Source: Candidatus Woesearchaeota archaeon
GTDB lineage: Archaea; Nanobdellota; Nanobdellia; Woesearchaeales; WAPJ01
Direction: 5' to 3'
DNA: 64,000 bases
NCBI GenBank assembly: GCA_047602885.1
Contig: JBLKOQ010000003.1
Location: forward strand, 464 to 64,463
A model generated the notes under the pieces. The model was given only the letters and a program-made list of their open reading frames with translations. It was not told the DNA's origin and ran no database searches. Every line of letters starts with the position of its first letter. The first letter of the stretch is position 1. A program made the translations under genes and the position numbers. Shown here piece after piece: positions 6,171 through 64,000 of the stretch.

Positions 6171-6194
6171 AATTCATTGGAATCCGTTCTGTAT

Positions 6195-6980: not shown

Positions 6981-7089
6981 GCTAATAGAAGGATAATCAA
7001 ACATTATAAACTTTGCTAAATAATGTCCATAGTATTTACGATTAGTCATATTCCACACATTTTTTAAGTAACTATAGTTTCTTAATATC
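6981..7089. promoter_or_regulatory. Divergent promoter region between the beta-class MTase and uvrC.
   Basis: TATA-like boxes in both orientations: TTTATAAT on the minus strand upstream of the 6980 start, and TTTTTTAAG about 25 bp upstream of the uvrC ATG at 7090. Confidence 0.3.
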
Positions 7090-46435: not shown

Positions 46436-46608
46436 AGTAAATACTTATAACATAGAGTTTATTAATTTATGGGATAGAATGAACAGCTATGTAATCATAT
46501 TATCATGCTTCTATAAGTTAGAATTACAGATTAGTGGAGAAATAATCTCTAAATAGTTTACTTATAATATTAATAGATTTAGGACATAGAAGGAATGTTT
46601 ACAGATAG

Positions 46609-48348: not shown

Positions 48349-48438
48349 AATAATAAGAAATGCAAGATTAGTATTTAAGAGTTATTTAAATAGAAGGGTG
48401 AAATGATATAAAGACGAAAGGATATTCATCATAATATT

Positions 48439-48573
48439 ATGGTAGACAACAAAGAAAATAATCCTGAACTAAGCAAAGAGACAATAATCGCTATAGAAAA
48501 AGCAAGAGAAAGAATAAAGAAAGGGCATTTTGTGACAGAGGAAGAGGCAGCGATAAGATTAGGGTTGCATTAA
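48439..48573 (+). CDS. Small ORF (44 aa), possibly an antitoxin-like or regulatory peptide; not in the ORF track.
   Basis: MVDNKENNPELSKETIIAIEKARERIKKGHFVTEEEAAIRLGLH; charged and helical. Lies upstream of the defence island. Confidence 0.25.
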   Translation: MVDNKENNPELSKETIIAIEKARERIKKGHFVTEEEAAIRLGLH

Positions 48574-48723
48574 GATACAACCCAAGAGCTATCTTTAATG
48601 GTACTAAACACTTAACTTTTATATAAAAGCATTGTTCATTTAAATACTATATTGCTATTTAGCATTATTTGGATATAACAATGCCAAAATATAATCAGTA
48701 TAACACAAACTTATTTATATTAG

Positions 48724-49842
48724 ATGTTGTTATTTAACATCATGGGAAAGGGCTCTACTCAGATTCTTATAAGAAGGATAATAGAATCATTAGCTAAATC
48801 TCCAAAATCATCAAGTGAGATAGCAAGAGAGACAGGGCTTGACAGGACTGCAATATCAAGATACCTGGAAGTACTAAATAAAAGTGGTTTTGTAACAGTA
48901 GAAAAGAAGGGTTCTAGCAAGAGATTCATATTATCATCAAATTATCGTATAGACACTTATTTCGGCCTATCTCTAGACTCTAAGACTGATAGGCTGATTG
49001 ATTCCATATACTATTATATTAGCGAAAGATGGAAAGAGAATAGCAGTAGGAGATTGCTCAAGACTACTGCACAAAAAATAATGTATCAGATAATACATGA
49101 TTGTGATCTCAGCATTCCTAACGGATGGTATATTTATGGGGGTATATGCGTAAAGCCTTATGATGCTAATAGTAGTTATGGTCATCGCAGACTGTCACAG
49201 AGTATAATTAATTGTGTGAATGAGACAGTCACAGAATATTCTAAGAATAAGTTTGAGTATGAGAGCAAACAACTCCAATATAAGAAGGCGGGAAAAGAGC
49301 TCTATTATATCAAAGAGGATATTCTAAAGATACTATATTCTAAGAGTTTTACTAAAAAGTCAATGCATGTACTACAAAAACAGTATGCGAGATTAAGGAA
49401 GATAGTACCTTCAGGAGACGCTTTATATTATGAGATTATTAACGATTATGACACTCTCCTTATAGACATTACAAGAGAATGGGATCATTTTGTGGATGAA
49501 AAGGATGATAGGAATTATGCTGAGTTCAAGCACAAACTAGTTTCTTCATTTGAAGCATTATGGAAGATGATAGCCATGCAAAATTTTAAAGAAGACCTAC
49601 TATTAGGAGGATATTATATGGAAAAAGAGCTCTATGAACATTTCAGGCTTGATATAGCCCAGGCTAAAGAGGATGTTATAGAAATCTGTTCCCTGTTAAA
49701 CGAGATGATACCATCAGAAGAGCCCGATGACCCTGATTATGATGAGTTTAAGAGAATTATTAAGGAAGGCCATAAGCTGCCTAAGAAAGAGCAGGCTAGG
49801 CTGATAGAAAAGCTTAATTCAAAGATTAGGAGAAAATCATAA
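48724..49842 (+). CDS. wHTH-domain protein with a large uncharacterised C-terminal domain.
   Basis: N-terminal MarR/ArsR-like wHTH (SSEIARETGLDRTAISRYLEVLNKSGFVTVEKKG). Confidence 0.5.
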   Translation: MLLFNIMGKGSTQILIRRIIESLAKSPKSSSEIARETGLDRTAISRYLEVLNKSGFVTVEKKGSSKRFILSSNYRIDTYFGLSLDSKTDRLIDSIYYYISERWKENSSRRLLKTTAQKIMYQIIHDCDLSIPNGWYIYGGICVKPYDANSSYGHRRLSQSIINCVNETVTEYSKNKFEYESKQLQYKKAGKELYYIKEDILKILYSKSFTKKSMHVLQKQYARLRKIVPSGDALYYEIINDYDTLLIDITREWDHFVDEKDDRNYAEFKHKLVSSFEALWKMIAMQNFKEDLLLGGYYMEKELYEHFRLDIAQAKEDVIEICSLLNEMIPSEEPDDPDYDEFKRIIKEGHKLPKKEQARLIEKLNSKIRRKS

Positions 49843-50241
49843 TAATTGTTCAGGCTTGATTGTGGGGACTTTTGAATTCTTGAAATCATTCGTGTTTCTT
49901 GTCACAATGTAGTCAGCTTTAGCTCTTCTTGCCAGTATGCAGTGTAGCTCGTCCTGGACATTATTGGGATTCTGGCTTCTTGCCATTTCTTCATCCTCTT
50001 CCGTTTTTCTTACTTTTATGGTTTTCTTTTCGAGTATTTTAAGGAGTATTCTTGCGCTTGAAAGCCTCTTTTTTATTTCCAGCTCTTTTAGCGTCCAGTC
50101 AGATATTATCACATTATGCTCGCATTTTGCAGCCCTGAACAATAATACTCTAGAAGATGCTGATATGTCTTTTCCGAATAAGTTCATAGTATCGTCAAGA
50201 GCATACATTATTATGTTCGTATCAATGTAAAGCCTAGCCAC
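49837..50241 (-). CDS. PIN-domain protein (VapC-like ribonuclease fold).
   Basis: LYIDTNIIMYALDD near the N-terminus and C-terminal DYIVTRNTNDF. GTG start. Confidence 0.7.
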   Translation of the reverse strand: MARLYIDTNIIMYALDDTMNLFGKDISASSRVLLFRAAKCEHNVIISDWTLKELEIKKRLSSARILLKILEKKTIKVRKTEEDEEMARSQNPNNVQDELHCILARRAKADYIVTRNTNDFKNSKVPTIKPEQLL

Positions 50242-50360
50242 TTAACCGCCCTGCAATTACTAGAGAAGCAGAATATGTTATTAATAGTATTAATGTAAAG
50301 AAGTCCAGTGGCATTATAAGAAAGGTATGAGATAATAATCCTTATACGATATGATACTCA

Positions 50361-50903
50361 TTACTCATTAGTATAGTCATACAAGCTCTTATTCTTGGAA
50401 TCCTTCTTATCTAAATCTATTAATTCAGTTTCATCATCAATCTCTATAATATCGCCAAATTTTCTTTTCATCTGCTCTAATAATATTTGTGCAATATCAT
50501 CCTTATGTAATATGAATCCGTCACTTGTCATAAAATAATCATTCCTAAAATCCTGTTCAATAACCTCTTTTCTTGCAAATCTCTTATCAAAATAGTCTAT
50601 TTTTAAAGAGCTCATTATATGGCTTGATGTTCTGCTAATAGATTTTGGCTTAATACCCATCTTATCTGCAAGCCCTTTCTGAGACCATTCCTTATCATTC
50701 TGAGCCAAGTAGTTTATAGTAGAATATACCCATAATAGCCCTCCTGCAATAAACTCTGTTTTAGAATTGGTATAATGTTTTCTTAAACGAAAATAAGCAT
50801 CTATTAGCTTTTCGATGTTCTCCTTATCCTCATCAGTATAAGAGAGTGATAGACCAAATACGATTTCTTTTACCTTATCCCTTTTTTCTTTAAAATCGCT
50901 CAT
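50361..50903 (-). CDS. Hypothetical protein (180 aa) with a possible central HTH.
   Basis: ORF; SQKGLADKMGIKPKSISRTSSHI is HTH-like. Confidence 0.4.
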   Translation of the reverse strand: MSDFKEKRDKVKEIVFGLSLSYTDEDKENIEKLIDAYFRLRKHYTNSKTEFIAGGLLWVYSTINYLAQNDKEWSQKGLADKMGIKPKSISRTSSHIMSSLKIDYFDKRFARKEVIEQDFRNDYFMTSDGFILHKDDIAQILLEQMKRKFGDIIEIDDETELIDLDKKDSKNKSLYDYTNE

Positions 50904-51096
50904 ATGAAATCATCTTTTGTGTTCTTATATACTGGTTATTGTTCTCATATTGTTATGGGTAGGCTTATTTCTCTTTTTATGCCTAAGCTAGAGGATTTAC
51001 AGTCCCGCCGAGGCAGGACCATCCTCTTTACACTTTCATTATTAGTGAATAGAAGGGAGTGGTGATTGTTTATAAGGTTGTTGGGGAATAATCATA

Positions 51097-51819
51097 TTAT
51101 GGAGTCCTAAAGCTCTCTTCATTCACCAGGCTAATTACTCCAATACAAGAATCATTGTATTTTGCAAATTCATGTGGATTACTAATTGTTCTGATTAATG
51201 CGAACCCTTTGATTGGGATATTAGGAAAATGCTTTTTTAGTAAGCTAGCACAACCTTGCATTGTGGACCCTCTTGTAATGACGTCATCTATAAGAAGAAT
51301 GCTTCTTGGCTGATGAACTTGTGGTATTACCTTGATGCTATTGTAATGCTCTGTTGGTTTAGGGCGTTCAGATGAAACGGAGTATGATGATTTTTGCACA
51401 GGAATAAAACGTTGTAAACAAGGATAATAATTCCCAAGACCTTGTTTTGATAGTGCTCGTGCAATCCTGTCAGGAACCCACAAAGTATCTTTTTGCATAA
51501 GATGACTTTTAGGCACAGGAACTAAATCAATATCTTCTCCGAAAAAATCTTTGAAAGGAAAACTCTCAATCTTTGTTTTAATCATCTCTGAGATTAATTC
51601 AGATGTAACTCTTGGAGGATTACCTCTAATTGAGTCACTTTTTACATTATTCATTACATTTTTTGATTTCTTTATCTCCTCATTCTTCTGACCTTCAATG
51701 AATCTTGGACAATACGCGAATAAGGAGCCATATTCAAGATTAGAAAGTAACAAGTTGATTACCCCAAACATCCTCTTGGGTTTCGGATAGTTCTTCTGGG
51801 AGAGAATCCAAAAGGACAC
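51097..51819 (-). CDS. Phosphoribosyltransferase (PRTase) domain protein, ComF/ShosT-like.
   Basis: PRPP-binding loop ILLIDDVITRGSTMQG. The 5' end overlaps the upstream gene by ~80 bp, so the true start is probably the internal Met at 51771 or 51654. Confidence 0.6.
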   Translation of the reverse strand: MSFWILSQKNYPKPKRMFGVINLLLSNLEYGSLFAYCPRFIEGQKNEEIKKSKNVMNNVKSDSIRGNPPRVTSELISEMIKTKIESFPFKDFFGEDIDLVPVPKSHLMQKDTLWVPDRIARALSKQGLGNYYPCLQRFIPVQKSSYSVSSERPKPTEHYNSIKVIPQVHQPRSILLIDDVITRGSTMQGCASLLKKHFPNIPIKGFALIRTISNPHEFAKYNDSCIGVISLVNEESFRTP

Positions 51820-52573
51820 TCAAATCTTTGATGCTTAGGACTTCTGCGCCGTACTTTATTAGTTTGGAAGGCCAGCTCAGATTCTTGTTGTTTGCAAGGT
51901 CTTCTAGGATGAACAGTCTTCTACCAAGCCTTAATGCTTCCCAGCCCTGATGCATTGTTCCGCTCTTATCACTTGCCTCTACTATGACTGATACTCTAGA
52001 TATTAATGCCATAGTCCTGTTTCTTGCCGGAAAGTTTGATGGGAGTATTGGACTTCCTATTCTGAACTGGGATATTAGGAGATGGTTATTTTTTATTGTA
52101 TCTTGTAGCTTACTATTTTCTTTAGGATAGCAAGTGTCAAGAGGCGTTCCTATGACTGCTATCGTGTTTCCTTTGTTTCTTATTGCTGATTCGTGAGCTA
52201 TAGTGTCTATTCCTTTGGCTAGGCCGCTTACTATGATGACATTATTCTTAACCAGGAATTCTGCTATTATTCTGGCATTTTCCATTCCCTTGCTTGTAGG
52301 CTGCCTGGTGCCTATTATTGATATGCTCCTGCTTTTTGATGCCAATGCCTTATTTCCTATAATGTATAATTCCTTAGGGGCAAATTTTTGTTCAATATCA
52401 TTTAGATTGCCGATAAGATTGGATGTTTCTATAGTCTCAATATTGTCATCTGCGCTCATACGTAATACCCTATGCTCTGTATTATCATAAGCAATATTAT
52501 AAGCTTTGTTATACATGCTATTAAGGTCGTTATAAACCGTTAATATAGGTAACATGCACAAGTCCAGTGGCAT
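51740..52573 (-). CDS. DprA/Smf-like Rossmann-fold DNA-processing protein.
   Basis: IIGTRQPTSKGMENARIIAEFLVKNNVIIVSGLAKGIDTIAHESAIRNKGNTIAVIGTPLD matches the DprA core G.R..s.yG......la..La..g..vvSGlA.GIDaaAH. Confidence 0.7.
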   Translation of the reverse strand: MPLDLCMLPILTVYNDLNSMYNKAYNIAYDNTEHRVLRMSADDNIETIETSNLIGNLNDIEQKFAPKELYIIGNKALASKSRSISIIGTRQPTSKGMENARIIAEFLVKNNVIIVSGLAKGIDTIAHESAIRNKGNTIAVIGTPLDTCYPKENSKLQDTIKNNHLLISQFRIGSPILPSNFPARNRTMALISRVSVIVEASDKSGTMHQGWEALRLGRRLFILEDLANNKNLSWPSKLIKYGAEVLSIKDLSVLLDSLPEELSETQEDVWGNQLVTF

Positions 52574-52663
52574 AAAACCATCTTATAAAGGGGAGTATTG
52601 AGCGTATAGGGCATTAAGAGTCTTAAAACATACTTTTTTATAGATAAAACTGATTTTTATCTT

Positions 52664-53098
52664 ATGGAGCATCCTAATGAGGAAATCATGCGAAAAGCGA
52701 TAGAATATGGCTATACCAATAGAACAGTCGGCTGCATAATAACAAGAGATGATAAGATAATCGCTAAGGCTGGAGGGACGATATTTTCAGATGAGCATGA
52801 TGCCACAGGACACTCTGAAATAAATGCTATTAGGGCTGCATGCAAGAAACTGGGAACTCATGAACTGAAAGATTGCTGGCTGTACACTACTTATGAGCCT
52901 TGCCCTATGTGCATGTCTGCAATCTGCTGGGCAAAAATGGAAGGGGTTGTGTTTGCAGCAAACCATACTGATAGGAATGAGCGTTGGACTTGGGAAATAA
53001 TGATACCTTCTGAAAAGATAGTTGAGAAATCAGAGCACAAGCCAAGAATAATACCTAACTTCTTAAGAGAAGAATCATTGAAGATACTAAGATTATGA
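52664..53098 (+). CDS. Cytidine/deoxycytidylate deaminase-fold zinc deaminase (TadA/guanine-deaminase-like).
   Basis: H-x-E ...PCxxC zinc ligands (HSEINAIRAA, EPCPMCMSAI). Confidence 0.8.
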   Translation: MEHPNEEIMRKAIEYGYTNRTVGCIITRDDKIIAKAGGTIFSDEHDATGHSEINAIRAACKKLGTHELKDCWLYTTYEPCPMCMSAICWAKMEGVVFAANHTDRNERWTWEIMIPSEKIVEKSEHKPRIIPNFLREESLKILRL

Positions 53099-53118
53099 TT
53101 TGGGTTTAAAAGATATAT

Positions 53119-53700
53119 TTACAGCTTTCTCCATTCCGGCTTTACATGTACTGGAGTATTTAAAGGAATGAATTCTATTTGTTTTTTCTTAGTATCTAAA
53201 ATTGTTACTCCGTTAGGATAAGTTCCATTAGATACTGGAGGGCAGAATATGATGTTTATGTCATTGTTTAAGCCTATTTTCTTGAAACCTGTCTCTGTTA
53301 GGGTGTTATCCTTGTAGTGCATTATTCTGTGGTCATGGCCATGAATGCTTATTTGACAATTATGCTTTTTCATCATGCTTATATGGTTTTTGAAGTCTTT
53401 TTTGTTTTTAGGCTCTGATGTAAGTTGATCCTGCATTGTCAGGATATATGAAGTGGGATAAGAGGACGTTAATGCCATCATAGCTCTTTATGGCGTATTC
53501 TTTTAGTTTGGAGAGGTAGCTCTTTTCATTACTGTTTATTAAAGGGCTAAGTTCTGTTTCTTCATAAAGATAAACCCTGTTTTTTGAAAGCTTTCTTCTT
53601 ATTTCATAATCCAGGCCATACCAGTTCTTAGGATAGACGAAATTGGCCTTATTGTTAGGAAGCTTTCTTATCGCGTAAAGGTCGTGGTTGCCTATAAGTA
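53119..53700 (-). pseudogene. Degraded MJ0936/YfcE-family metallophosphoesterase, N-terminally truncated and frameshifted.
   Basis: Upstream frame 53700-53470 encodes KVLIGNHD (motif III) with an in-frame stop just 5' and no motifs I/II. A second frame (ORF 53119-53481) encodes HGHDH and IFCPPVSNG, which resemble the GHTH and NPGS motifs. The frame switches near 53440-53480. Confidence 0.45.
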
Positions 53701-53702
53701 CT

Positions 53703-54467
53703 TTATTTATCTTTCTTTAATAAATTGTGTTCAATGATTTTAATTTGACTCTTGTTTAGATGATACTGCTTTTTTCCTTTAATTAAATATATGAACTCTG
53801 CATTCTTCAAAAGCTTGCCTTTAATTTTGGTCCCATCAAGAAAAGTGACAGTTACGATTGGAAAATGTGACTTTGACGAACCAAGTACCATTGCGGCATA
53901 TGATAAGTTTACAAAAGTAAGTATCAACACAACAAAAAATCGGTAACTGTTTGTTGATTGAAAAAATGATACTGTTGCATAAATTAGAAAAGTACATATT
54001 AAAAAAACAAGAAATTGATTTTCTAAAGTTCTAAAAAGCTTTGAATAAAAATTATTGTTCATAGAGATATTTTTCTCAACATCCATTTGTTCCGTAACAT
54101 ATGATTTATTTGATTTTTTTAACTCAGTTAGTTTTTTTCTTAATGTTTTATTATATAATTGTTGTATATTAAAAATCTGAATTTCTTTATAATACTTATA
54201 TTTTGAGTAAAACCCGAATAAAACTATCTGAATTGCAATGACTAATAAAAAATTAATTTTATAATTAAGGGTACTAAAAAAATATAGAGCTAAAGACAAA
54301 GGTACAAGAATGTATGAGAGTACAAAGTAAAAGCCTGTAACCAACATACTGTAGTAATCAAAGCTCTGAACTTTCGTATCAGCAATAATTCTCCCAAAAT
54401 AATAAAAACATGCTGATATAATAATGAGAAATGCTGACAAATTACCTATTATACTTGCGATTTCCAT
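53703..54467 (-). CDS. Hypothetical polytopic membrane protein (254 aa) downstream of the Type I RM operon.
   Basis: ORF; N-terminal multi-TM region, central helical region and C-terminal soluble segment. Confidence 0.45.
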   Translation of the reverse strand: MEIASIIGNLSAFLIIISACFYYFGRIIADTKVQSFDYYSMLVTGFYFVLSYILVPLSLALYFFSTLNYKINFLLVIAIQIVLFGFYSKYKYYKEIQIFNIQQLYNKTLRKKLTELKKSNKSYVTEQMDVEKNISMNNNFYSKLFRTLENQFLVFLICTFLIYATVSFFQSTNSYRFFVVLILTFVNLSYAAMVLGSSKSHFPIVTVTFLDGTKIKGKLLKNAEFIYLIKGKKQYHLNKSQIKIIEHNLLKKDK

Positions 54468-54479
54468 CTTAATTATCTC

Positions 54480-54818
54480 TTAACTTAAGTTACTAGCACC
54501 CCAAATTATAACTAAACCTGTAATTATTGATGAAGCTATCTTCCCTGCAGTGTAATAACTTTCAAACAGTTTAAATTTGAATGTATAGCTTATAATTCCA
54601 ACTACACCTAATAATGTCACAATGTTTGTGTATAAAATAATAATAGGAGGTACAATCTCATAAATACCAAAGAATGTTACAAGTGCAATAGCATTAGCAA
54701 ACATTGTAACTCTTCCCGTATAATGTTTCTCAACTAAATAACCAATTAGAATCAAAGACAAAGGTGCTAACAAATGAAAAAACGAATAAGGTAATAAATC
54801 CAGAAGCCAAATATTCAT
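54480..54818 (-). CDS. Hypothetical small membrane protein (112 aa).
   Basis: ORF with 3-4 TM helices; overlaps the hsdS stop by 4 bp. Confidence 0.4.
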   Translation of the reverse strand: MNIWLLDLLPYSFFHLLAPLSLILIGYLVEKHYTGRVTMFANAIALVTFFGIYEIVPPIIILYTNIVTLLGVVGIISYTFKFKLFESYYTAGKIASSIITGLVIIWGASNLS

Positions 54819-56281: not shown

Positions 56282-57674
56282 TGTTTTCTTTCATTGATTT
56301 TTCTAAAATATCAATGATTTCCTTACTTGACATATGCTCAGTTTCATCTATGTTATTTGGATTGTTAATGTCCAGGTTATAGTTTCTCTTCTTTATTTCA
56401 TCTATACTGACTTTCCAACAGTATTGCTTAAATTCGTCATTCTCTCTGTCCTTCCACCATCTTTTCTCTAAATCAAACTCTTCAATTCGCATTGGTCTAG
56501 TTTTATTGTATGTTTTGTATCCATCAGGAAGAGGATGTTCAAAATACCATATTTCCTTAGTTGGTTTTCCTTTTTCAAAGAATAATAAGTTTGTTCTTAT
56601 TGAAGTATAAGGATTAAACACACCATTAGGCAGCCTGACTATAGTATGTAAATTGAATTCATCCAGCAATTTTTCTTTAATCCTAGTCTTAACACCTTCT
56701 CCAAATAGAAACCCATCAGGAAGTACTATTCCACACCTACCTTCATCACGTAACAATTCCATTATCAACACCAAGAATAGATCTGCAGTTTCTCTTGTTC
56801 TAAATGATGCTGGAAAGTTATTCTCTATACCTACTTCTTCAGCACCTCCAAAAGGAGGATTTGTTACAACTATATCTACCATATCTGAAGGTCCAATATC
56901 TCTTATAGGTCTACTGAGAGAATTATCATGTCTGATATCAGGTAATTCAATATCATGCAATATCAGATTTGTAGTTGCTAATAGATGAGGTAACGGTTTC
57001 TTTTCTATACCTCTAAGACATTTCTCCAACTTTTCTCTTTCATCTACAGTATTAACTGATTTTTTTAAGTTCTCCAAGCTTGAAATAAGAAATCCTCCTG
57101 TACCACATGCAGGATCTAGTATTAGTTCACCTAATTTTGGATCAATAATATCAACTATGAACTGAGTTACAGCCCTTGGAGTATAATATTCTCCCGCATT
57201 ACCTGCACTTTGTAAATCTCTTAATATCTGCTCATATATATCATTAAATGTGTGCCTATCAGCAGTCGTATGAAAATCGACTTCATTTAACTTGTTAATT
57301 ACCTGTCTAATTAACGCTCCGTGTTTCATATAATTATAAGCATCTCTAAATAATTCTCGTACAAGAATCGCTTTCTTATCATCTTCATTAGCTTCTAGAT
57401 TTTTTAACTTAGGAAATAAAACATTATTAATGAATTCAAGCAAATCTTCACCAGTTATTCCTTCATCATCCGTAGCCCAACTTCTCCATCTGAGGTTCTC
57501 AGGTATAGGTGATTTATAATTATCATCTTCTAGCTCCCATTCTTCTTCTTTCGCATCAAAGACTTTTAGAAATATCATCCAAACTAATTGAGAAATTCTT
57601 TGTGCATCTCCATCTACTCCAGAATCCTTTCTCATTATATCCTGTATTGATTTTATTATTGTTGACAAACTCAT
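56247..57674 (-). CDS. hsdM: Type I restriction-modification N6-adenine methyltransferase subunit HsdM.
   Basis: HsdM N-terminal domain (ISQLVWMIFLKVFD), motif I LDPACGTGGFL and motif IV NPPFG. Confidence 0.9.
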   Translation of the reverse strand: MSLSTIIKSIQDIMRKDSGVDGDAQRISQLVWMIFLKVFDAKEEEWELEDDNYKSPIPENLRWRSWATDDEGITGEDLLEFINNVLFPKLKNLEANEDDKKAILVRELFRDAYNYMKHGALIRQVINKLNEVDFHTTADRHTFNDIYEQILRDLQSAGNAGEYYTPRAVTQFIVDIIDPKLGELILDPACGTGGFLISSLENLKKSVNTVDEREKLEKCLRGIEKKPLPHLLATTNLILHDIELPDIRHDNSLSRPIRDIGPSDMVDIVVTNPPFGGAEEVGIENNFPASFRTRETADLFLVLIMELLRDEGRCGIVLPDGFLFGEGVKTRIKEKLLDEFNLHTIVRLPNGVFNPYTSIRTNLLFFEKGKPTKEIWYFEHPLPDGYKTYNKTRPMRIEEFDLEKRWWKDRENDEFKQYCWKVSIDEIKKRNYNLDINNPNNIDETEHMSSKEIIDILEKSMKENIELLEQIKKEL

Positions 57675-57676
57675 TC

Positions 57677-60022
57677 TTAAGCCTCCGCATATAATTGTTC
57701 TTCCAATTCTCTTATTGCTTCAATATAACCTTTCTTTCCTCCAAAGTATTTTACAATCTCAAAAGGAGTGCCTAAATCTCTTAGAGGGTTTACTTTTAGT
57801 ACATTTAAGCTTTCAAGGTCTAGGATGCCTTCATCAGCGTATTTGTCCAAAAGAGCATCAAGTACTACTCTAGCTTTTTCTCCATACTTAGAGAAGTAAT
57901 TCTTTTTCTTTACATTCTTTGCCCTCTCCTGTCTAGTGAGAGGTTTCTTATCAAAAGCAACATGGCATATTAGGTCAAAAGGATCATAATCTCTTCCAAC
58001 TTCTCTTTGAAGTTCATCTAATAGTATGCCTTGCTCTTCTAATTTCTCTATAATAATAGACTTTTTAGTTGAATCATTCCAATCCTTCAAAAATTTACTA
58101 AGAGTCTTATACTCTTGATAAAGAGTTTTCTTTGTAAAATCTTGAAGACTTTCTGTTATCAGTCTCCCTTCACTATCATAAAACAATACCCTCTGATTAA
58201 TTACTTTAACAGGAACTCCTTTGACATAGTATTTTCTAGGTCTTTCTTTAGTATCTTTAATAAAGACTTGTTCTTGTTTAGTTAAACCATACTTGTCCTC
58301 CTTATCTTTTATAGCCTCAGGAATATCTATTTTCTTATTAGGGGGAACTTCATATATTTGAACTGGTTCTCCGTCAAAGTCTGGATCGGCGAACAAATCT
58401 GTAACTTGTCTAAAATCCATTATAGTGAAATAGTACTTCCCATAATCTTCTCTAATTCTTGTACCTCTTCCGATTATTTGTTTAAACTCAGTCATTGATT
58501 GAATGTTAGAATCTAATACTATTAGTTTGCATGTTTGTGCATCTACCCCTGTATTCATCAATTTAGAAGTTGTTACTATAACAGGATATTTAGTCTTAGG
58601 ACTAATAAAATTATCTAATTCTTTTTTACCTAAATCATCATCACCAGTAATTTTCATAACATATTTGGAATTTTTCTTAATTAAATCATAATTCTCGTTC
58701 CTTAATTCTAATCTCATTCTCTCAGCATGATCAATGTCTACACAAAAAACTATAGTTTTAGCGTATCTATCCCCTGAATTTTTAAGGTATTCTGTAATTT
58801 TTTTCGCCACGGTTTCTGTTCTTTCATCAATTGCAAGATTTCGATCAAAGTCTTTAGAATTATAAACACGATCTTCTACAGCGTACCCATATTTATCTTT
58901 TTGTCCTCTACTTGGACGCCATCCTTCAACATCTCTATCTAATGAAATCTTCACAACTTTATAGGGTGCTAAAAATCCATCCTCAATACCTTGTTTTAAA
59001 GAATAAGTATATATTGGTTCACCAAAATAATCTATATTTGAAATATGCTTTGTTTCTTTTGGTGTTGCAGTTAGACCTATTTGTGTTGCTGACTCAAAGT
59101 ACTCTAATATTTCTCTCCAAGCAGAATCTTCTTTAGCGCTTCCTCTATGACACTCATCAACAACTATTAAATCAAAGAAATCTTTTGAGAACTGTTTATA
59201 TATGTTCTTCCAATCATCATTTCCAGACAATCCTTGATATAAAGCCATATAAACTTCATAAGATTTGTCAACTTTTCTATTTGTGATTTTCTTCATTGCG
59301 CCACTGAATATTTTAAAATCATTATTCATAGTTTGATCAACAAGAATGTTTCGATCTGCGAGAAATAAAATTCTTTTTTTGCTTTTTGATTTCCATAACT
59401 TATATATGATTTGAGATGCAACATATGTTTTTCCTGTTCCTGTGGCCATGACTAACAAAACTCTTTCCTGACCTTTAGCTATGTTTTCTACGGCTCTATT
59501 AATTGCAACTTCTTGATAATAACGGGGAGACTTTCCGGTTTGGGAAGTATGATAATTATGCGTTATGATACTTTCATGTTCTTCTTCTATTCCCTTCCAT
59601 ATCTTGTATCTATTCCACAACTCTTCTGGAGAAGGAAATTCATCAAGTAAAAGCTCCCTTTCAATGTATTTTCCTTTACCTGTTCTATCGTGTTCTATAA
59701 AACCATCACCGTTAGAACTGTAAACAAAAGGTATGTCCAAAATCTCTCCATAACTAATCGCTTGCTGTAAACCTGAACCTATTGTATGTTTATTGTCCTT
59801 AGCTTCAATTACTGCAATAGGCATATTTGGTTTATAATACAGGATATAATCTGCTCTTTTTCTTTCACCACGAATAATTCTTTTTCCTCTAACTATTATT
59901 TTACCATCAGTAAATGTTCTCTCTTCTCTAATCTGCTTATCTTTATCCCAGCCGGACTTTAAAATAGCAGGAGTTATGTATTTCGTACATATATCCCGTT
60001 CGGATAGATCTTTCAGATTCAT
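57677..60022 (-). CDS. hsdR: Type I restriction enzyme R subunit HsdR.
   Basis: HSDR_N region ([18 protein letters not shown]...ADYILYY...IEAKD), SF2 helicase motifs ([13 protein letters not shown]) and helicase C-domain motifs. 781 aa, at the short end for HsdR. Confidence 0.85.
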
Positions 60023-60124
60023 AAGTTAGCACCCTAAATCTGTTAAGAAATTACTCAAATACTTAAAAATTCTCTTATTAATAGGTTCGAATCACCAGAT
60101 CTATTTATAAAACCCACTTACATA

Positions 60125-60650
60125 ATGGCTCAGTTGAAAATCTCCGAAAAGTGTGCTATGCGCCACCCCGAAGGGGCCGACCCCCGGCGCATCAGCGTCA
60201 CGCAAGAACATTCGTTCCTGCTCAAGCTGACGGCTACCGCACACTTTTTCTACAGAGCCGTTAACCTGGGCTCTGTAGAAAATCTCCATAGGCGTAAGCC
60301 TATGTTATAGGCTATGAGCCTGCTGAATAGTTCTGCGGTTTGTGTCTTGATGTGTTTGCCGCTAAGACTGGTTCCGAATAGTCTTTTTAGTGCTGAGTAT
60401 AATGATTCTATGATGTTTCTTTGCCAGTACAAGGTGTAGTCTATGCAGTCTCTCATTAGTTTTCTGTGTCGTCCTCGACGACAACCTTTGCGTGCTGGTG
60501 CTATGCTGAACGTGCCGTTTTCTTCTAGCCATTGATGCAGCCATTCTGCATCATAAGCCTTGTCAAGCAGCAGTACTTCTGGTTTTAGACTTGTTCTTTT
60601 GTGAAGTTGTGGTATGCTTCTGGCTTCATTTCTTGGTTTTGCATATGATT
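60125..60650. mobile_element. Remnant of an IS4/IS5-family insertion sequence (3' portion only); GC-rich relative to the flanks.
   Basis: Carries the transposase C-terminal fragment and GC-rich terminal palindromes (for example TTTCTACAGAGCC-GTTAACCT-GGGCTCTGTAGAAA at 60245-60281). GC is about 50% against about 33% around it. Confidence 0.6.
60250..60641 (-). pseudogene. IS4/IS5-family DDE transposase, C-terminal ~130-aa fragment; the N-terminal two-thirds is missing.
   Basis: Minus-strand frame reads ...AKPRNEARSIPQLHKRTSLKPEVLLLDKAYDAEWLHQ...YWQRNIIESLYSALKRLFG. DKAYD is the third catalytic-region motif and YWQRNIIESLYSALK is an exact Y-x2-R-x3-E-x6-K signature. No in-frame start. Confidence 0.7.
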
Positions 60651-60813
60651 TCTATCATTCATAAGCATAGGACAAGCAACTTTATTTATATATGTTTTGT
60701 TTTTTACCACTTTATAGTAATATCATTTTATTGTGACTTAGCAAAAACATAAGAAATCATAACAATTAAAGCAATACAAAACCTATTTATAAGATAATAA
60801 AAAACAGCCAGCT

Positions 60814-62271
60814 ATGAGCATCTTAGATAGGCTTTTTAAACTGGTTCGAAAAGAGAAACTTCCGAAAGAAATTGATGAAGATAATTCTTTAGCATCAGAT
60901 GATAAGGAAAACGATACTGATTCGATAGAAGATTATGAATATCCTGAGGTTCTAGAAGAATTAGACAATGGACAAAAATCAGCAGTAACAACTAATCATA
61001 AAAGAACACTGGTACTTGCAGGAGCAGGAGCAGGAAAAACTAGAGTATTAATACACAGGATACTCCATCTCATAATGAACTGCAAAGTCAATTCTGGAAA
61101 TATACTTGCGGTTACTTTTACAAGAGATGCCACTTATGAAATGAAAGATAGGCTAATATCTCATTTCGAGCCAGAATATTTCGATAAAATTAAAGAGATT
61201 AAAGATAATTATGAAACTTATAAGTTTAAAACAACAATGCAATATAAGCATCCTGAAATAAGAAACTTGGATGTTAAAACAATTCATTCGCTGTGTTATC
61301 AAATATTGAGACTAGATGGCGCAAAAGTATTCAATACGAATTTTCAAGTAATAGGCGACGAAGACAAGAAAACCGATGACACTCAAAAAGGAATATCACA
61401 ACAGAAAATAATAAAAAATATAATTTTTGAGATAGGTAATGAAAATCCAGACTATTTAGAAAAAGTTAAGAAATTCATATATGATTATCTGGTAGATTAT
61501 GAGAAAATTACTCTAGCAAAATTAAGCATTTCGCCAGGTAAATATATGACTTTAGATGGAAAAGAAGTGAGGTCCAAATCTGAACGAGATATAGCCAATT
61601 TCCTAATTCAACACAACATCAAATACGATTATGAACGAGAAGCTACATGGGTAACAAAATCAGATCAAAACAAAAGATATCATCCTGATTTCTATTTACC
61701 TGAATATGACATATACATTGAACATTGGGCAGTAACCTCTTCTGAAGATGCAACAGACAAGAACTTTGAACAAACATTTGATAAGGAAAAATATCTTGCA
61801 GAAAGAAAATGGAAAATTAGCCAGTTTAAAAAACATAATAAAAAGCTAATAGAATCATCTGAAAAACAAATGCGCGGCAATCTAAACGATTATCATCAAT
61901 GGTTATACGGAGAAATCTTCAGACTTACTAATGGAGCCATTAAATTCAATCAAACTTCAAATTTCATTTTAGAGGACAAACGCATGACAGAAGGATTGAT
62001 TTTACTAATCAGAAGTTTCATGAAAATAATTAATCTAGCAAAATCTAATAGAGTATCTGAAGAAACAATAAAGACCAATCTGAAAAAAGAGAAACATGAA
62101 GAGATACTAGAATTCTATGATATATTCTTAACTACATTTGGTGCTTATGAGGAATTCCTTATAAGGAAAAGCCTAATTGACTATAACGACATGATACATA
62201 AAGTTATCGATTTGTTCAATGTAGATAAAAAAATATTATTAAAATACCAAAAAAATATAAGCATATACTAG
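60814..62271 (+). CDS. UvrD/PcrA-family SF1 helicase, N-terminal fragment. It has a Walker A, motif Ia and an embedded PD-(D/E)XK (DUF559/Vsr-like) nuclease-type insert, and ends at a frameshift.
   Basis: GAGAGKTRVLIHR (motif I), ILAVTFTRDATYEM (Ia). The insert reads SKSERDIANFLIQHNIKYDYE...YHPDFYLPEYDIYIEHW, resembling the E...DF...IE.DG.H core of DUF559-type endonucleases. Confidence 0.65.
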   Translation: MSILDRLFKLVRKEKLPKEIDEDNSLASDDKENDTDSIEDYEYPEVLEELDNGQKSAVTTNHKRTLVLAGAGAGKTRVLIHRILHLIMNCKVNSGNILAVTFTRDATYEMKDRLISHFEPEYFDKIKEIKDNYETYKFKTTMQYKHPEIRNLDVKTIHSLCYQILRLDGAKVFNTNFQVIGDEDKKTDDTQKGISQQKIIKNIIFEIGNENPDYLEKVKKFIYDYLVDYEKITLAKLSISPGKYMTLDGKEVRSKSERDIANFLIQHNIKYDYEREATWVTKSDQNKRYHPDFYLPEYDIYIEHWAVTSSEDATDKNFEQTFDKEKYLAERKWKISQFKKHNKKLIESSEKQMRGNLNDYHQWLYGEIFRLTNGAIKFNQTSNFILEDKRMTEGLILLIRSFMKIINLAKSNRVSEETIKTNLKKEKHEEILEFYDIFLTTFGAYEEFLIRKSLIDYNDMIHKVIDLFNVDKKILLKYQKNISIY

Positions 62272-62321
62272 TTGATGAATACCAAGATGTTTCATCAGCA
62301 CAAGTAGAGCTTATAAGTCTG

Positions 62322-63347
62322 TTGCTCTGCAAAGATAACTCTTTATTTGCAGTAGGAGATGATTGGCAAAGCATATATGGTTTTCGAGGTTCCGAAGTCG
62401 AATTCATTGTTAATTTTAATGAAACATTCAAAGATAGTAATGTTATAGTACTTCCATATAACTATCGTTCCGGCAAAAATATCGTTGACGCTTCAAATAT
62501 CGTAATAATGAAAAATCCTAATCAGATCAATAAACACATAAAAGCGTTCTATGAGAATAAAGACGAAAAGATCTTCCAATATAATGCATTAAATGACATT
62601 GATAGTGCTAATTTCATAATAGATGTTACAAAAAAACACTATGCAGAAGGGTATGAATACAATGATATCCTTCTTCTTTACAGAAGAAGCAGGCATATAT
62701 ATCCGTATAAGGAATACTTCAAGAAGCACAATTTTAAGATTAACACCAAAACAATACATGGCTCAAAAGGATTAGAAGCCAAAATAGTTTTCTTAATCGG
62801 AATGACTACAGATGGATTTCCTTTTGTTTGGGAAGATTCGAGAGTAATACAAGTAATAAAGAAAACAGACTTACTAAGAAAAGAAGAGGAAGAAAGAAGA
62901 ATCTTTTACGTTGCAATGACTCGAGCTCAAGAAAGACTTATATTACTATCGGAAAAGAATAATGAATCATCATATTGTTCAGATATACCTTCAGATTTCA
63001 AGAAAGTCAAAGTATCAAAACAAGAGTTTACCGAAGAAATGCTCAGCCCTAAATTAAGAGGCATACTACAAAGATTGGAAGACGGACAAAATCCAGATGA
63101 AATATCAATAGATTTAGATGAAGAACAAACAAATGTTGAAAAATATATAGCCAGATTAATAGAAATGGGGCTTGTTGATGTTAAGAAATTTGTTAATGAA
63201 AAAAATTATGCACTGATTGCTTCTGAAATACCATCTGATGAACAAAGTCCAAGGCTAAACCCAATTAAAAGAGCTCTACCAAAAAGTATAAGCTATGGTG
63301 AAATAAGGTACGTTATAGCCGATTGGAAACACAAACAGAAAGAATAG
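62322..63347 (+). CDS. UvrD/PcrA-family helicase, C-terminal fragment (motifs II-VI) with a C-terminal winged-helix-like tail. Same gene as 60814-62271.
   Basis: In this frame the sequence upstream of the annotated start reads KHILVDEYQDVSSAQVEL (motif II DEYQD). Then GDDWQSIYGFRGSEV (III), HGSKGLEAK (V-like) and VAMTRAQERLILL (VI). The ORF caller starts at a TTG. Confidence 0.65.
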   Translation: MLCKDNSLFAVGDDWQSIYGFRGSEVEFIVNFNETFKDSNVIVLPYNYRSGKNIVDASNIVIMKNPNQINKHIKAFYENKDEKIFQYNALNDIDSANFIIDVTKKHYAEGYEYNDILLLYRRSRHIYPYKEYFKKHNFKINTKTIHGSKGLEAKIVFLIGMTTDGFPFVWEDSRVIQVIKKTDLLRKEEEERRIFYVAMTRAQERLILLSEKNNESSYCSDIPSDFKKVKVSKQEFTEEMLSPKLRGILQRLEDGQNPDEISIDLDEEQTNVEKYIARLIEMGLVDVKKFVNEKNYALIASEIPSDEQSPRLNPIKRALPKSISYGEIRYVIADWKHKQKE

Positions 63348-63483
63348 GTTCAAAGGAAAGAGGAAAGTTGATTATAATCAAAGGAAGATGGAGTTTGAGG
63401 TGGGGTATATAGAATAAAAGGAAAGCACCAAGGAGCATTGAAGGGTCGCAGATTTTATATACTCAATAAGCTATTCTATAATT

Positions 63484-64000
63484 ATGGGTCTTAAGGAAGA
63501 ACTTCTAAGAAATATACTTGGGGGCATTAAAGGAGAATCCATATCTTTAGGAGAGAACTCAATAAAAAACATAAACGAAGTGAAAAGAGTCTATAAACTA
63601 TTACTAGGAACTTCTAACAAACTTCCTTTGCGAATAGGTAACTTTGATATTAAAGTACAAGGAACATACATAGAATTAGATGAGCATTTGCACTTCAACA
63701 GATATAGGTTAATAACTCTCAACTCAAGCATTTATAAGAATACTAAAATATTCAATTTAGAACTATACAAGAAACTCTGCAAAGAACACGAAGAAGATTG
63801 CCTTAAATCAGGAGGATATGGTGGAAAATGGAAGAACAACAGCACAGAAAAATTGTTTGCTAAATCATCACCTTATAAGGATTTAAGAGGAAACGGACCA
63901 TCTAGATGGAGACAAAGAGCATTTTATGATTTTATGAAGGATCTTTATGCAACAGAGAAAAAAATTAAACTTAGAAGGTTTTCAGTTTGGGAAAGGATTG
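63484..64000 (+). CDS. Hypothetical protein, 5' portion (runs off the window end).
   Basis: ATG at 63484 and an open frame to position 64000 (MGLKEELLRNILGG...RRFSVWERI). Not in the ORF track because no stop lies within the window. Confidence 0.4.
   Translation, partial: MGLKEELLRNILGGIKGESISLGENSIKNINEVKRVYKLLLGTSNKLPLRIGNFDIKVQGTYIELDEHLHFNRYRLITLNSSIYKNTKIFNLELYKKLCKEHEEDCLKSGGYGGKWKNNSTEKLFAKSSPYKDLRGNGPSRWRQRAFYDFMKDLYATEKKIKLRRFSVWERI

Follow-up and report, generated by a model that had tools for sequence, protein, structure and literature searches.

A probable two-layer variable region in a Woesearchaeota genome, with a type I restriction-modification operon that carries a membrane protein of an undescribed archaeal family

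Genes and defence systems of the region

The stretch of DNA analysed here, referred to as the window, comprises 64,000 nt from a MAG of Candidatus Woesearchaeota, a DPANN archaeon, and the span of interest for defence occupies its last part, at 48.4-64 kb (Table 1). Every gene that an earlier note had listed for this span was recovered at the position given there or no more than a few bases away (ORF list, Pfam, PADLOC, NCBIfam), and prediction of defence systems with PADLOC matched the profiles ShosT, ShosA, REase_I, MTase_I and Specificity_I. Two complete known defence systems, type I restriction-modification (RM) and Shosta, thereby lie within ~9 kb, adjoined by PIN, IS and helicase-nuclease genes. 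According to surveys, defence systems are few on average in DPANN archaea, with RM under-represented, so that two adjacent systems are somewhat dense for this group.

Table 1. Features of the span, in window coordinates
Feature	Coordinates	Strand	Evidence
44-aa ORF, pepF/wHTH intergenic	48439..48573	+	called as a gene on Logan contig L001
wHTH protein, 372 aa	48724..49842	+	HTH_5 6e-10; N-terminal ArsR/Csa3-like winged helix
PIN-domain protein, PIN_3 family	49837..50241	-	PIN_3 4.6e-6
DUF6398 protein	50361..50903	-	Pfam DUF6398 5e-7, 30.4 bits (cut-off 27.2)
ShosT, short PRTase-only toxin	51097..51819	-	PADLOC ShosT PDLC03962 2.7e-26
ShosA, DprA-like antitoxin	51740..52573	-	PADLOC ShosA 1.1e-73; DNA_processg_A 4e-56
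Zinc deaminase, CDA fold	52664..53098	+	dCMP_cyt_deam_1 2e-20
Metallophosphoesterase (MPE)-like relic, frameshifted, 5'-truncated	53119..53700	-	motifs LIGNHD, LLSH, IHGHDH in two frames
TM254, 254-aa membrane protein	53703..54467	-	hydropathy scan: ~5 TM helices and ~55-aa soluble tail
TM112, 112-aa four-helix membrane protein	54480..54818	-	overlaps hsdS stop codon (ATGA)
hsdS, specificity subunit	54815..56245	-	Methylase_S in two stretches; PADLOC Specificity_I 5e-70
hsdM, N6-adenine methyltransferase subunit	56247..57674	-	N6_Mtase 1.8e-76; HsdM_N 9e-15; PADLOC MTase_I 2e-213
hsdR, EcoAI/FtnUII family (type IB)	57677..60022	-	NF046051 1200 bits (cut-off 550); ResIII, EcoEI_R_C; PADLOC REase_I 1183 bits
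IS4/IS5-type 3' remnant	60125..60640	-	C-terminal third of DDE transposase and GC-rich end
UvrD/SF1 helicase with inserted PD-(D/E)xK-like nuclease segment and C-terminal HTH_40	60814..63347	+	UvrD-helicase 2e-36; UvrD_C 1e-27; HTH_40 8e-12
DUF7255 protein, cut by window end	63484..64000	+	Pfam DUF7255 4.8e-47

The RM genes stand in the order hsdR-hsdM-hsdS-TM112-TM254 with intergenic gaps of 2, 1, -4 and 12 nt, and from this tight spacing and their shared GC3 we infer that all five are co-transcribed. The 4-bp overlap that had been noticed between hsdS and the first membrane protein gene is real: it reads ATGA, with GAGGTG 5 nt upstream. Identified from its profile matches, the system is a complete type I RM system with an apparently intact hsdR; it resembles the EcoAI/FtnUII family (type IB) in the score of HsdR on the equivalog model (1200 bits), in the NPPF motif of HsdM (VTNPPFGG), in the two target-recognition domains of HsdS (476 aa, with the start taken from the gene call on L001) and in its arrangement as one operon, but differs in the two membrane protein genes appended to that operon. 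It would restrict unmethylated incoming DNA.

The DprA-like/PRTase pair described earlier is likewise present and is recognised by PADLOC as a short-form Shosta pair, complete by its profile matches. The match of ShosT spans profile positions 30-223 of 237, and the acidic pair essential to E. coli ShosT (PMC12961424, PMC11961720) is retained in its PRPP loop, ILLIDDVITRGST. ShosA matches PDB entry 9vzo ("DprA-like antitoxin protein ShosA") at 5.6e-21. The intact PRPP loop of the toxin and the overlap of the two genes are as in known Shosta systems; the differences are that ShosT is here a PRTase-only protein of 224-240 aa, whereas the E. coli protein (424 aa) also has an N-terminal pyrophosphatase domain, and that the host is a DPANN archaeon, in which RadA would have to take the place of the RecA partner described for ShosA. 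If the published mechanism applies (PMC11961720, PMC12961424), the pair would kill or arrest infected cells through PRPP-dependent disruption of purine metabolism.

To the left of these genes, the PIN_3 protein, a putative RNase toxin, is encoded convergently with the wHTH protein, whose C-terminal ~300 aa have no domain assignment and whose gene is overlapped by the 3' end of the PIN gene over 6 nt. This convergent pair is conserved and recurs elsewhere: On contig L020, a homologue of the wHTH protein (30% identity, 1e-38) is also convergent with a PIN gene, the PIN proteins being 41% identical. The DUF6398 protein had no match in PADLOC, PHROGs, NCBIfam or PDB, and a literature search gave no mention of it; both statements also hold for the DUF7255 protein at the right end of the window. 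The best PDB relatives of the deaminase are B. subtilis guanine deaminase (1wkq/1tiy, 1e-23), and it is probably a guanine or nucleoside deaminase, that is, a salvage enzyme. It does not look like an anti-phage dCTP deaminase, and its scores fall well under the NCBIfam thresholds for that enzyme (20.9 bits; cut-off 400) and for TadA.

Conceptual translation of the IS remnant (60250-60639, minus strand) matches DDE_Tnp_1 at 4e-8, with DKAYD...YWQRNIIESLYSALKR, and the GC content of the remnant is 46%, as against 36% for the window. The UvrD-nuclease gene consists of two ORFs, split by a frameshift in the A7 run at 62249-62255, in which one extra A would restore ...KYQKKYKHILVDEYQD.... A matching architecture is found in an 810-aa protein of contigs L004-L009 (28-39% identity), which adjoins TraC/TrbC and integrase genes; judged by these relatives, the UvrD-nuclease appears to be a type of helicase found on conjugative-element-like insertions of other Woesearchaeota, and not to belong with Gabija-type systems.

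Composition and boundaries

Low GC3 is confined to the block at 53.7-64 kb, which lies ~2 SD under the rest of the window. Compared with the 41 other genes of the window (mean 0.342, SD 0.05), genes in the right-hand ~10 kb have z-scores of -1.8 to -2.5: GC3 is 0.22-0.24 for hsdRMS and TM254 (z of -2.1 to -2.5; TM254, at 0.23, is like hsdRMS), ~0.20 for TM112, and 0.25 for the two UvrD ORFs (z of -1.8 to -1.9). Genes at 48.7-53.5 kb are within ±1.1 SD of that mean. The right-hand 10 kb is compositionally foreign.

The decayed metallophosphoesterase reported earlier, at the left end of this block, is recognised from motifs only (GNHD, SH and GHDH over two frames), as neither HMM (Pfam) nor PDB searches gave a match. 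Its frame is without the N-terminal motifs and stops where TM254 ends; as read from the sequence, the relic is the left junction of the low-GC3 block, the edge of which cuts the MPE gene. The window stops inside the island and the contig ends at 64,547 nt, so that the right edge lies out of view, and searches of the span for a tRNA, an integrase and flanking direct repeats gave nothing. Its left flank is formed by pepF, a core gene with 5,731 homologues at E <= 1e-30. A genome scan found no close relative of the source genome; the nearest relative found (L024) has a PepF orthologue that is 79% identical and, in the 1.4 kb upstream of pepF to which this comparison is confined, a wHTH-NTase and HEPN pair at the position of the island. 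In the strain variant represented by L001, the arrangement is identical, with zero differences over 48562-60175, and this contig breaks at 60175, at the end of the IS.

The membrane protein families

TM112 belongs to an undescribed archaeal family of four-helix proteins (115 clusters) that recurs inside RM and nuclease operons. It has no match in Pfam, PADLOC, PHROGs or PDB sequences, and its AF2 model, with a pLDDT of 96, has no PDB fold match. Over 66 family members, residues G26, E30, R36, F40, N42, A45, Y78, Y89 and S97 are at least 90% conserved, and the predicted topology is N-out/C-out, which would put the conserved motif VEKxYxGR and a second basic loop in the cytoplasm.

Members of the family lie directly 3' of an RM or nuclease gene in 6/13 independent contexts, in a sample that was grown from an RM-linked query and is thus not unbiased; spacing to the upstream gene ranges from a 4-nt overlap to ~28 nt. 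This upstream gene is hsdS in the window and hsdM on the Methanocaldococcus jannaschii plasmid pDSM2661_1 and six Logan contigs, where hsdS follows (hsdM-TM112-hsdS-hsdR in M. jannaschii) and the RM subunits are just 21-30% identical to those of the window. In the remaining cases it encodes an Eco57I/TaqI_C-type methyltransferase (L014), RE_MjaI (L029), a DUF2779/Cas4-like nuclease with a convergent N6_N4 methyltransferase (L004-9) or an SNase with a convergent methyltransferase (L019). The 7/13 contexts that are not RM-linked hold an integrase, a wHTH-PIN pair, unknown genes and three haloarchaeal plasmids. Distant members carry fusions to secreted GH99/WbsX-like, C39-like and CARDB domains, suggesting a more general membrane role for the family.

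TM254, the last gene of the operon, encodes a near-orphan, with one distant homologue (P0002, 30% identity) among 5.8 billion proteins, and its AF2 model is unusable (pLDDT of 45). The context of P0002 contains no hsd or other RM Pfam domain and gives no sign of co-conservation with RM or with the 112-aa gene. The earlier proposal that the two membrane protein genes are RM-linked is backed by these comparisons for TM112, whereas TM254 would be lineage-specific cargo of the hsd operon.

Origin of the region and possible role of TM112

We consider it likely (probability about 0.7) that the span is a two-layer mosaic variable region beside the core gene pepF, a reading that includes the role of TM112 set out below. 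The left layer (48.7-53.5 kb), of normal composition, would comprise the wHTH-PIN pair, DUF6398, the short-form Shosta pair and the guanine-deaminase-like enzyme, and may be long-resident since it bears no compositional signal. The low-GC3 right layer (53.7-64 kb) would have been acquired horizontally, with the intact five-gene hsd operon landing in, and truncating, the phosphoesterase-like gene, accompanied by the IS4/5 stump, the frameshifted UvrD-nuclease and DUF7255. As in the defence islands of Makarova et al. (2011), RM, toxin-antitoxin, PIN, IS and helicase-nuclease genes cluster with uncharacterised genes and composition is atypical in part of the span; unlike in those islands, the foreign composition covers only part of it, no integrase or attachment site is seen, and the right edge lies beyond the window. 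The ~15-kb defence island originally proposed is retained in part: The two known systems, the foreign block, the cut MPE gene and the different accessory pair in the nearest relative speak for it, but the ordinary composition at 48.7-53.5 kb, the salvage-like deaminase and the disrupted UvrD-nuclease do not.

That there is no island, and that resident genome merely chances to hold an RM system and a toxin-antitoxin pair, would fit the typical GC3 on the left, the unchanged arrangement in the strain variant, and the missing tRNA, integrase and repeats. We judge this very unlikely given the GC3 shift of ~2 SD over 53.7-63.3 kb, the MPE-like gene truncated at the junction, the IS remnant of foreign GC, the pseudogenised helicase of mobile-element type, the other accessory genes at this site in the nearest relative, and the interruption of the assembly at the end of the IS and at the contig end. 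It is also quite unlikely that the UvrD-nuclease and DUF7255 form an active Gabija- or Nhi-type defence, with the split put down either to a sequencing error in the homopolymer or to programmed -1 frameshifting. The gene does share the SF1 UvrD core with GajB/UvrD-type defence helicases, with partial matches to GajB and DRT-associated helicase profiles, its nuclease insert matches the candidate profiles PDC-S68/S69, the shift falls within a slippery-looking heptamer (A AAA AAT), and beyond it the reading frame stays open throughout and includes every helicase motif; but the window contains no GajA-like partner, the nuclease segment sits inside the helicase, HTH_40 is C-terminal, DUF7255 has no PADLOC match, no record of the frameshifted product is found elsewhere, and the closest relatives of the same architecture stand beside TraC, TrbC and integrase genes, in conjugative-element-like contexts.

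The span is ordinary save for an RM operon that ends in a membrane protein of an undescribed archaeal family recurring in RM operons. In the mosaic reading, TM112 would be an accessory with a function in RM and nuclease modules, most likely a membrane partner acting via its conserved cytoplasmic loop (E30, R36), either as a membrane tether or as a caged membrane effector that is freed upon attack on the RM complex. An abortive-infection role for the membrane protein(s) of the operon is plausible by analogy with PrrC or Ronin. PrrC is an anticodon nuclease whose gene lies within the EcoprrI type I RM locus, where it provides a second line of defence; its position within a type I hsd operon is mirrored by the M. 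jannaschii arrangement, but PrrC is a soluble ATPase-nuclease and TM112 a small integral membrane protein without an enzymatic domain. In Ronin (RonA with HsdS/HsdM, E. coli ECOR55), a small membrane gene is likewise tightly linked to type I hsdS/hsdM, and HsdMS cages RonA, a small membrane effector: The methyltransferase complex is proposed to hold the effector inactive until binding of an anti-restriction protein frees it (bioRxiv 10.1101/2023.04.06.535777). Compared by description, however, RonA has 61 aa and one predicted helix, as against 112 aa and four helices in TM112; Ronin is without hsdR, which is intact here; and TM112, an archaeal protein, is also encoded directly after type II and IIG enzymes and plain nucleases. 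With RM partners of so many kinds (type I, II, IIG and plain nucleases), Ronin-like caging is hard to picture.

TM112 and TM254 might instead be unrelated membrane cargo, TM112 being a general four-helix module for cell-surface functions that came to adjoin RM genes through joint travel on plasmids, integrated elements and variable hotspots. Fusions to signal-peptide-bearing glycosidase-like, C39-peptidase-like and CARDB domains are easier to reconcile with a generic anchor than with a defence effector, the haloarchaeal-plasmid copies stand alone without an RM neighbour, further contexts involve integrases and T4SS genes, and the sole homologue of TM254 has a context that lacks hsd and other RM Pfam domains. 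We nevertheless find this possibility doubtful, since a position directly after an RM or nuclease gene in 6/13 contexts, once between hsdM and hsdS, is closer than co-residence alone would give (a rough estimate of p is near 1e-7 for at least 6/13 such neighbours, assuming ~2% RM/nuclease genes), and the invariant polar residues E30, R36 and N42 argue for a specific function. A role purely as tether or scaffold, with no toxic activity, would bring restriction or nuclease enzymes to the cytoplasmic side of the membrane, at the point of entry of foreign DNA. E. coli EcoKI reportedly associates with the inner membrane, many different enzymes could share one tether, the family serves as an anchor in fusion proteins, and the predicted topology would leave its most conserved motif and second basic loop in the cytoplasm; this too is unlikely, as the diverse upstream enzymes show no shared docking domain and many family members are without a nearby enzyme partner.

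The 44-aa ORF between pepF and the wHTH gene has no Pfam match. It holds 10 of the 22 SNPs between two strain variants, yet is intact, with conservative substitutions, and is possibly a small regulator or antitoxin-like gene.

Gene content and layering of the island beside pepF

All of the genes that the earlier note had listed for the island (about 48.4-64 kb) are present, and its reading of the span as a defence island is borne out in part, by a pair of known systems and by the horizontal acquisition of the right-hand block: within 15 kb lie a type I restriction-modification (RM) system, a Shosta pair, a PIN gene, an IS remnant and a mobile-element-type helicase. PADLOC, as a defence-system predictor, recognised the type I RM and Shosta systems in the span. 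Pfam, PADLOC and NCBIfam identify a 372-aa winged-helix protein, PIN_3, DUF6398, the PRTase/DprA pair and a CDA-fold deaminase in the left layer (48.7-53.5 kb), and hsdS, hsdM, hsdR and a UvrD gene with a nuclease-like insert and an HTH_40 tail in the right block (53.7-64 kb); the source MAG carries the locus tags ACMXYL_01250 and ACMXYL_01255. Since the contig ends at 64,547 nt, the island runs into the contig end.

Coordinates of the features discussed, in the window and in loci of relatives
Sequence	Position (strand)	Feature	Remark
Window	4733-7154	Second low-GC3 cluster
Window	5322-6170	Methyltransferase	D12 class, Dam-like
Window	6195-7154	Methyltransferase	N6_N4
Window	7090-8676	uvrC
Window	42867-43667	266-aa gene
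Window	43996-46435	Two membrane/secreted protein genes	202 and 626 aa; no Pfam match
Window	48439-48573 (+)	44-aa ORF	Between pepF and the wHTH gene
Window	48724-50241	wHTH and PIN_3 genes
Window	50301-50314; 52560-52573	Copies of AAGTCCAGTGGCAT	Exact 14-nt repeat
Window	51097-51819 (-)	ShosT
Window	51740-52573 (-)	ShosA
Window	53119-53700 (-)	Metallophosphoesterase-like relic
Window	53703-54467 (-)	TM254	254-aa membrane protein
Window	54480-54818 (-)	TM112	112-aa membrane protein
Window	60125-60640 (-)	IS4/5 remnant
Window	60125-60290	GC-rich patch	Accounted for as IS end
Window	60175	Break of the independent Logan assembly	At the IS remnant
Window	60814-63347 (+)	UvrD-nuclease gene
Window	62249-62255	A7 run	Site of the frameshift
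Window	63484 onward (+)	ORF	DUF7255 protein
L004	1-12900	Integrated element	Example of L004-L009, L016
L020	4447-5959	wHTH-PIN pair	Metagenome contig
L037	96455-110760	TM112 homologue and neighbours	Natrinema sp. DC36 plasmid NZ_CP084473.1

The restriction system is a complete type I system of the EcoAI/FtnUII family. HsdR matches NF046051 at 1200 bits (cut-off 550) as well as ResIII (2e-45) and EcoEI_R_C (5e-33), HsdM matches N6_Mtase (1.8e-76) and has NPPF within VTNPPFGG, and Methylase_S matches HsdS in two stretches, corresponding to two recognition domains. These three genes lie in one operon with gaps of 1-2 nt, and those for the two membrane proteins follow: spacings along hsdR, hsdM, hsdS, TM112 and TM254 are 2, 1, -4 and 12 nt. 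The 4-bp overlap with hsdS that had been claimed for the membrane proteins is real for the 112-aa gene, as an ATGA with GAGGTG five bases 5' of it. The tight spacing, the overlap with its GAGGTG and a common GC3 indicate that all five genes form one putative operon.

Against the 41 other genes of the window (mean GC3 0.342, SD 0.05), hsdR, hsdM, hsdS and TM254 fall 2.1 to 2.5 SD under the mean and the two UvrD ORFs 1.8 to 1.9 SD under it; the TM112 gene has a GC3 of ~0.20, and the wHTH, PIN, DUF6398, Shosta, deaminase and metallophosphoesterase relic genes stay within ±1.1 SD. For the relic, which the earlier note had called a decayed metallophosphoesterase, the motifs speak in favour and the profile searches lend no support: from the calcineurin-like set (DxH, GDxxDR, GNH(D/E), H, GHxH), GNHD, SH and GHDH are kept across two frames and the first two are absent, and there is no match in Pfam, NCBIfam, PHROGs or the PDB. 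Because the N-terminal motifs are lost at the point where the TM254 gene ends, the low-GC3 block appears to have replaced or split a metallophosphoesterase-like gene. Beyond hsdR, the IS element could be confirmed on conceptual translation (DDE_Tnp_1 4e-8; 33.7 bits, cut-off 23): what is left is the C-terminal third of an IS4/5 transposase, at 46% GC and with YWQRNIIESLYSALKR (signature sought: Y-x2-R-x3-E-x6-K). Since the rest of the transposase, its N-terminal two thirds, and the other end of the element are missing, the copy is a remnant, not a functional member.

The UvrD-nuclease gene is split by a frameshift at which one additional A would restore the DEYQD motif, and an exact-protein look-up gave no exact product on record for its first ORF. 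An 810-aa protein of the same helicase-nuclease architecture, 28-39% identical to it, adjoins TraC/VirB4-like, TrbC-pilin and integrase genes in insertions on many Woesearchaeota contigs, and with such relatives the window copy reads as a probably decayed mobile-element helicase rather than a Gabija-type one. A Gabija identity was rejected on the lack of GajA and on these relatives in conjugative-type insertions: matches to GajB are partial only (e.g., 1e-24 over the first 70 residues), and no GajA-like partner (OLD-family ATPase/Toprim) stands among the neighbours in the window. The integrated element of contigs L004-L009 and L016 occurs on many Woesearchaeota contigs, of which the longest has 922 kb. 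It has the look of a conjugative-type element from a DPANN archaeon, and its gene products are a TraC/VirB4-like ATPase, a TrbC/T4SS-pilin-like gene, two tyrosine recombinases, C5 and N6_N4 methyltransferases, a DUF2779/Cas4-like nuclease, a TM112 homologue and a UvrD-nuclease helicase.

In the left layer, the DprA-like/PRTase pair of the earlier note is present and is assigned by PADLOC profiles and a structural match to the known defence system Shosta: ShosA reaches 1.1e-73 in PADLOC and 5.6e-21 against the ShosA structure 9vzo, the two genes overlap, and ShosT reaches 2.7e-26 against the PADLOC ShosT profile, as opposed to 0.003 for PsyrT, by which a PsyrTA identity was rejected. ShosT contains the PRPP loop LLIDDVITRGST with the acidic DD pair kept; in E. 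coli ShosT, D331/D332 in this loop are needed for toxicity (PMC12961424, PMC11961720). The protein here has 224-240 aa and is PRTase-only, whereas E. coli ShosT has 424 aa and an N-terminal pyrophosphatase/hydrolase domain: the match is confined to the 237-position PRTase-type profile, and the window's ShosT is the short subtype that PADLOC models separately. Profile and sequence searches with ShosT gave no PDB match. The two copies of AAGTCCAGTGGCAT are set in a 34-nt similar stretch; on the coding strand, one precedes the PIN start by ~60 nt and the other the called ShosA start by ~18 nt, and the repeat may be a shared regulatory site or due to chance. The wHTH and PIN_3 genes are convergent with overlapping 3' ends, a layout unusual for a toxin-antitoxin-like module, and the pair recurs, 30% and 41% identical, on an unrelated metagenome contig (L020), again beside a TM112 homologue. 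The deaminase reads as a putative salvage enzyme, not a defence protein: it is nearest to B. subtilis guanine deaminase (1e-23), and an anti-phage dCTP deaminase is ruled out by an NCBIfam score far under the threshold.

DUF7255 and DUF6398 had no PDB match in profile and sequence searches, a viral contig scan with DUF7255 returned nothing, and no mention of these adjoining DUFs was found in the papers searched. Rfam (whole window at the gathering threshold; 59.9-60.9 kb in E-value mode) and a tRNA scan gave nothing relevant, neither flanking direct repeats nor attachment sites were detected, and a promoter and terminator scan, using bacterial models ill-suited to archaea, yielded sites no more numerous than in shuffled sequence. 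As an island, the span is unremarkable. It supplies a DPANN case of Shosta, already reported from archaea, adjoining a type I RM system; RM is reported to be under-represented in DPANN archaea (PMC12988326).

The TM112 family and its genomic contexts

What is new here is the RM-embedded family of TM112, which is unnamed, well conserved and of confidently predicted fold. A profile search of 1.84 billion representatives recovered 115 clusters, 81 of them at E <= 1e-10, whose members are mostly stand-alone proteins of 100-140 aa from DPANN, methanogen and haloarchaeal mobile elements; G26, E30, R36, F40, N42, A45, Y78, Y89 and S97 are each at least 90% conserved. The AlphaFold model of TM112 is a four-helix bundle (pLDDT 96, pTM 0.85) for which Foldseek found no match in the PDB (best E 1.4). 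TM112 has no sequence match in Pfam, PADLOC, PHROGs or the PDB, and neither it nor its Methanocaldococcus jannaschii homologue has one in PADLOC 2.0; a viral contig scan with the family and a search of a phage collection with TM112 returned nothing, and the papers searched yielded no mention of the M. jannaschii member.

Independent genomic contexts of TM112 family members
Context	Sequence	Directly upstream	Also nearby
1	Window	hsdS
2	M. jannaschii plasmid pDSM2661_1 (WP_010890089.1) and six Logan contigs	hsdM	hsdS, then hsdR
3	L014	Eco57I/TaqI_C-type methyltransferase
4	L029	RE_MjaI
5	L004-L009, L016	DUF2779/Cas4-like nuclease	Convergent N6_N4 methyltransferase
6	L019	SNase	Convergent methyltransferase; GmrSD gene
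7-13	L010; L020; L018, L021; three haloarchaeal plasmids	No RM or nuclease gene	Integrase (L010); wHTH-PIN pair homologous to the window's own (L020); unknown genes (L018, L021)

In 6 of the 13 contexts, the gene immediately upstream of the family member is one for restriction, modification or a nuclease. If ~2% of genes are RM or nuclease genes, the probability of at least six such neighbours in 13 is near 1e-7, a rough estimate that is indicative only, since the sample of contexts was seeded from an RM-linked query. The RM system of M. jannaschii is 21-30% identical to that of the window and the membrane proteins 43.5%; the nearest relatives of TM112 lie outside type I contexts, which argues for an association that was shuffled from one RM type to another rather than passed down as a single operon. 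A homologue on the Natrinema plasmid (L037) is accompanied by GIY-YIG and HNH nucleases, a nucleotidyltransferase and a 7-cyano-7-deazaguanine synthase, the last reminiscent of deazaguanine DNA-modification clusters.

Four distant members are fusions: one with a signal peptide and a GH99/WbsX-like domain, two with C39-like peptidase domains and one with a CARDB domain. These fusions point to an N-out/C-out topology, by which the conserved VEKxYxGR loop and a second basic loop would be cytoplasmic.

TM254 is made up of some five helices plus a soluble tail. Among 5.8 billion proteins only one, distant, homologue was recovered, and the neighbours of that homologue include no hsd or other RM Pfam domain. 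An AF2 model built from a 2-sequence alignment (pLDDT 45) was discarded, an impression of an Sm-like C-terminal tail found no support, and the 186-aa gene that follows the TM112 homologue in L010, tried as a TM254 relative, is unrelated.

Possible roles of TM112

That TM112 has a functional link with RM or nuclease modules we put at a probability of roughly 0.55. In one, more speculative, reading the TM112 family would be an archaeal restriction accessory, exchangeable between RM systems and not tied to any one type, and TM112 a four-helix membrane effector or guard restrained by the neighbouring RM or nuclease enzyme: a virus that neutralised this enzyme would set TM112 free, and the membrane would collapse. 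Such a caged-effector role is speculative and, in our judgement, unlikely, and the same holds for its wider form, in which the family's swappable effectors would be an archaeal counterpart of the Ronin/PrrC type of backup immunity. That TM112 serves as a tether is about as unlikely, though the fusions show that the domain may serve as a plain anchor. That it is merely co-travelling cargo we regard as doubtful, if less so than either of these roles; the seven contexts with other neighbours and the spread over mobile elements would suit it, and the six RM or nuclease neighbours favour the functional tie.

PrrC is the classical accessory gene inside a type I locus. By analogy, the closest known counterpart of TM112 is Ronin, whose RonA, a toxic membrane protein of 61 aa, is kept in check by HsdMS until anti-restriction proteins release it (bioRxiv 10.1101/2023.04.06.535777). 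Both have a small membrane protein gene tightly linked to hsdS/hsdM, seen here in the 4-nt overlap with hsdS and in the position of the M. jannaschii homologue between hsdM and hsdS. However, RonA (~61 aa) has a single helix whereas TM112 has 112 aa and four, which sets the two apart by description, and Ronin is without hsdR whereas the window's operon has it intact; TM112 is not a demonstrated member of the Ronin or PrrC families.

To our knowledge, restriction-coupled backup immunity (PrrC, PARIS, Ronin) has been described in bacteria alone. The defences of archaea are little explored, many archaeal genomes showing only RM and CRISPR (PMC12988326). The repeated occupation by this family of the last or an internal slot of archaeal restriction/nuclease operons is a testable lead: if the tie is true, archaea would have a membrane component coupled to restriction, layered immunity would no longer be confined to one domain of life, and the relation of RM enzymes to the membrane would become easier to approach.

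The pepF locus and a second methyltransferase cluster

The synteny comparison was drawn from exact-protein look-ups, in which the window's PepF had no exact product on record; the GTDB species collection contained no close genome, and a scan with PepF gave distant bacterial matches only. pepF belongs to the core genes, with 5,731 homologues found at E <= 1e-30, and the nearest orthologue found, 79% identical, is on a 5.2-kb contig (L024) where a wHTH-nucleotidyltransferase and HEPN pair takes the island's position upstream of pepF, 1.4 kb being visible there; more distant pepF relatives have unrelated neighbours. The comparison may fit a variable site beside pepF, on thin evidence. On the other side of pepF, the window has the 202-aa and 626-aa protein genes, the latter with an N-terminus that looks like a pilin-type signal, before the 266-aa gene is reached; since in L024 pepF has a homologue of the 266-aa gene as its immediate downstream neighbour, the locus is variable on that side too.

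A strain variant (L001; Logan, SRR32456880) shares the island, with 99.84% identity to the window over 46265-60175. The 22 differences all lie in 46852-48561 (pepF and the pepF-wHTH spacer) and none in 48562-60175 (11.6 kb), an SNP-free stretch that should not be over-read since the 590 bp left of the SNP patch are likewise identical. Ten of the 22, all within 44 nt, fall in the 44-aa ORF, which stays intact with conservative substitutions (K/R, H/Q, V/L, E/Q, I/K) and is probably a genuine small gene whose C-terminus is recombined or fast-evolving.

The second low-GC3 cluster of the window contains a gene for a 205-aa soluble protein without a family match, convergent with and overlapping the Dam-like methyltransferase gene; the N6_N4 methyltransferase follows, and uvrC adjoins. 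This arrangement of two methyltransferases and a candidate endonuclease is similar to that of DpnII.
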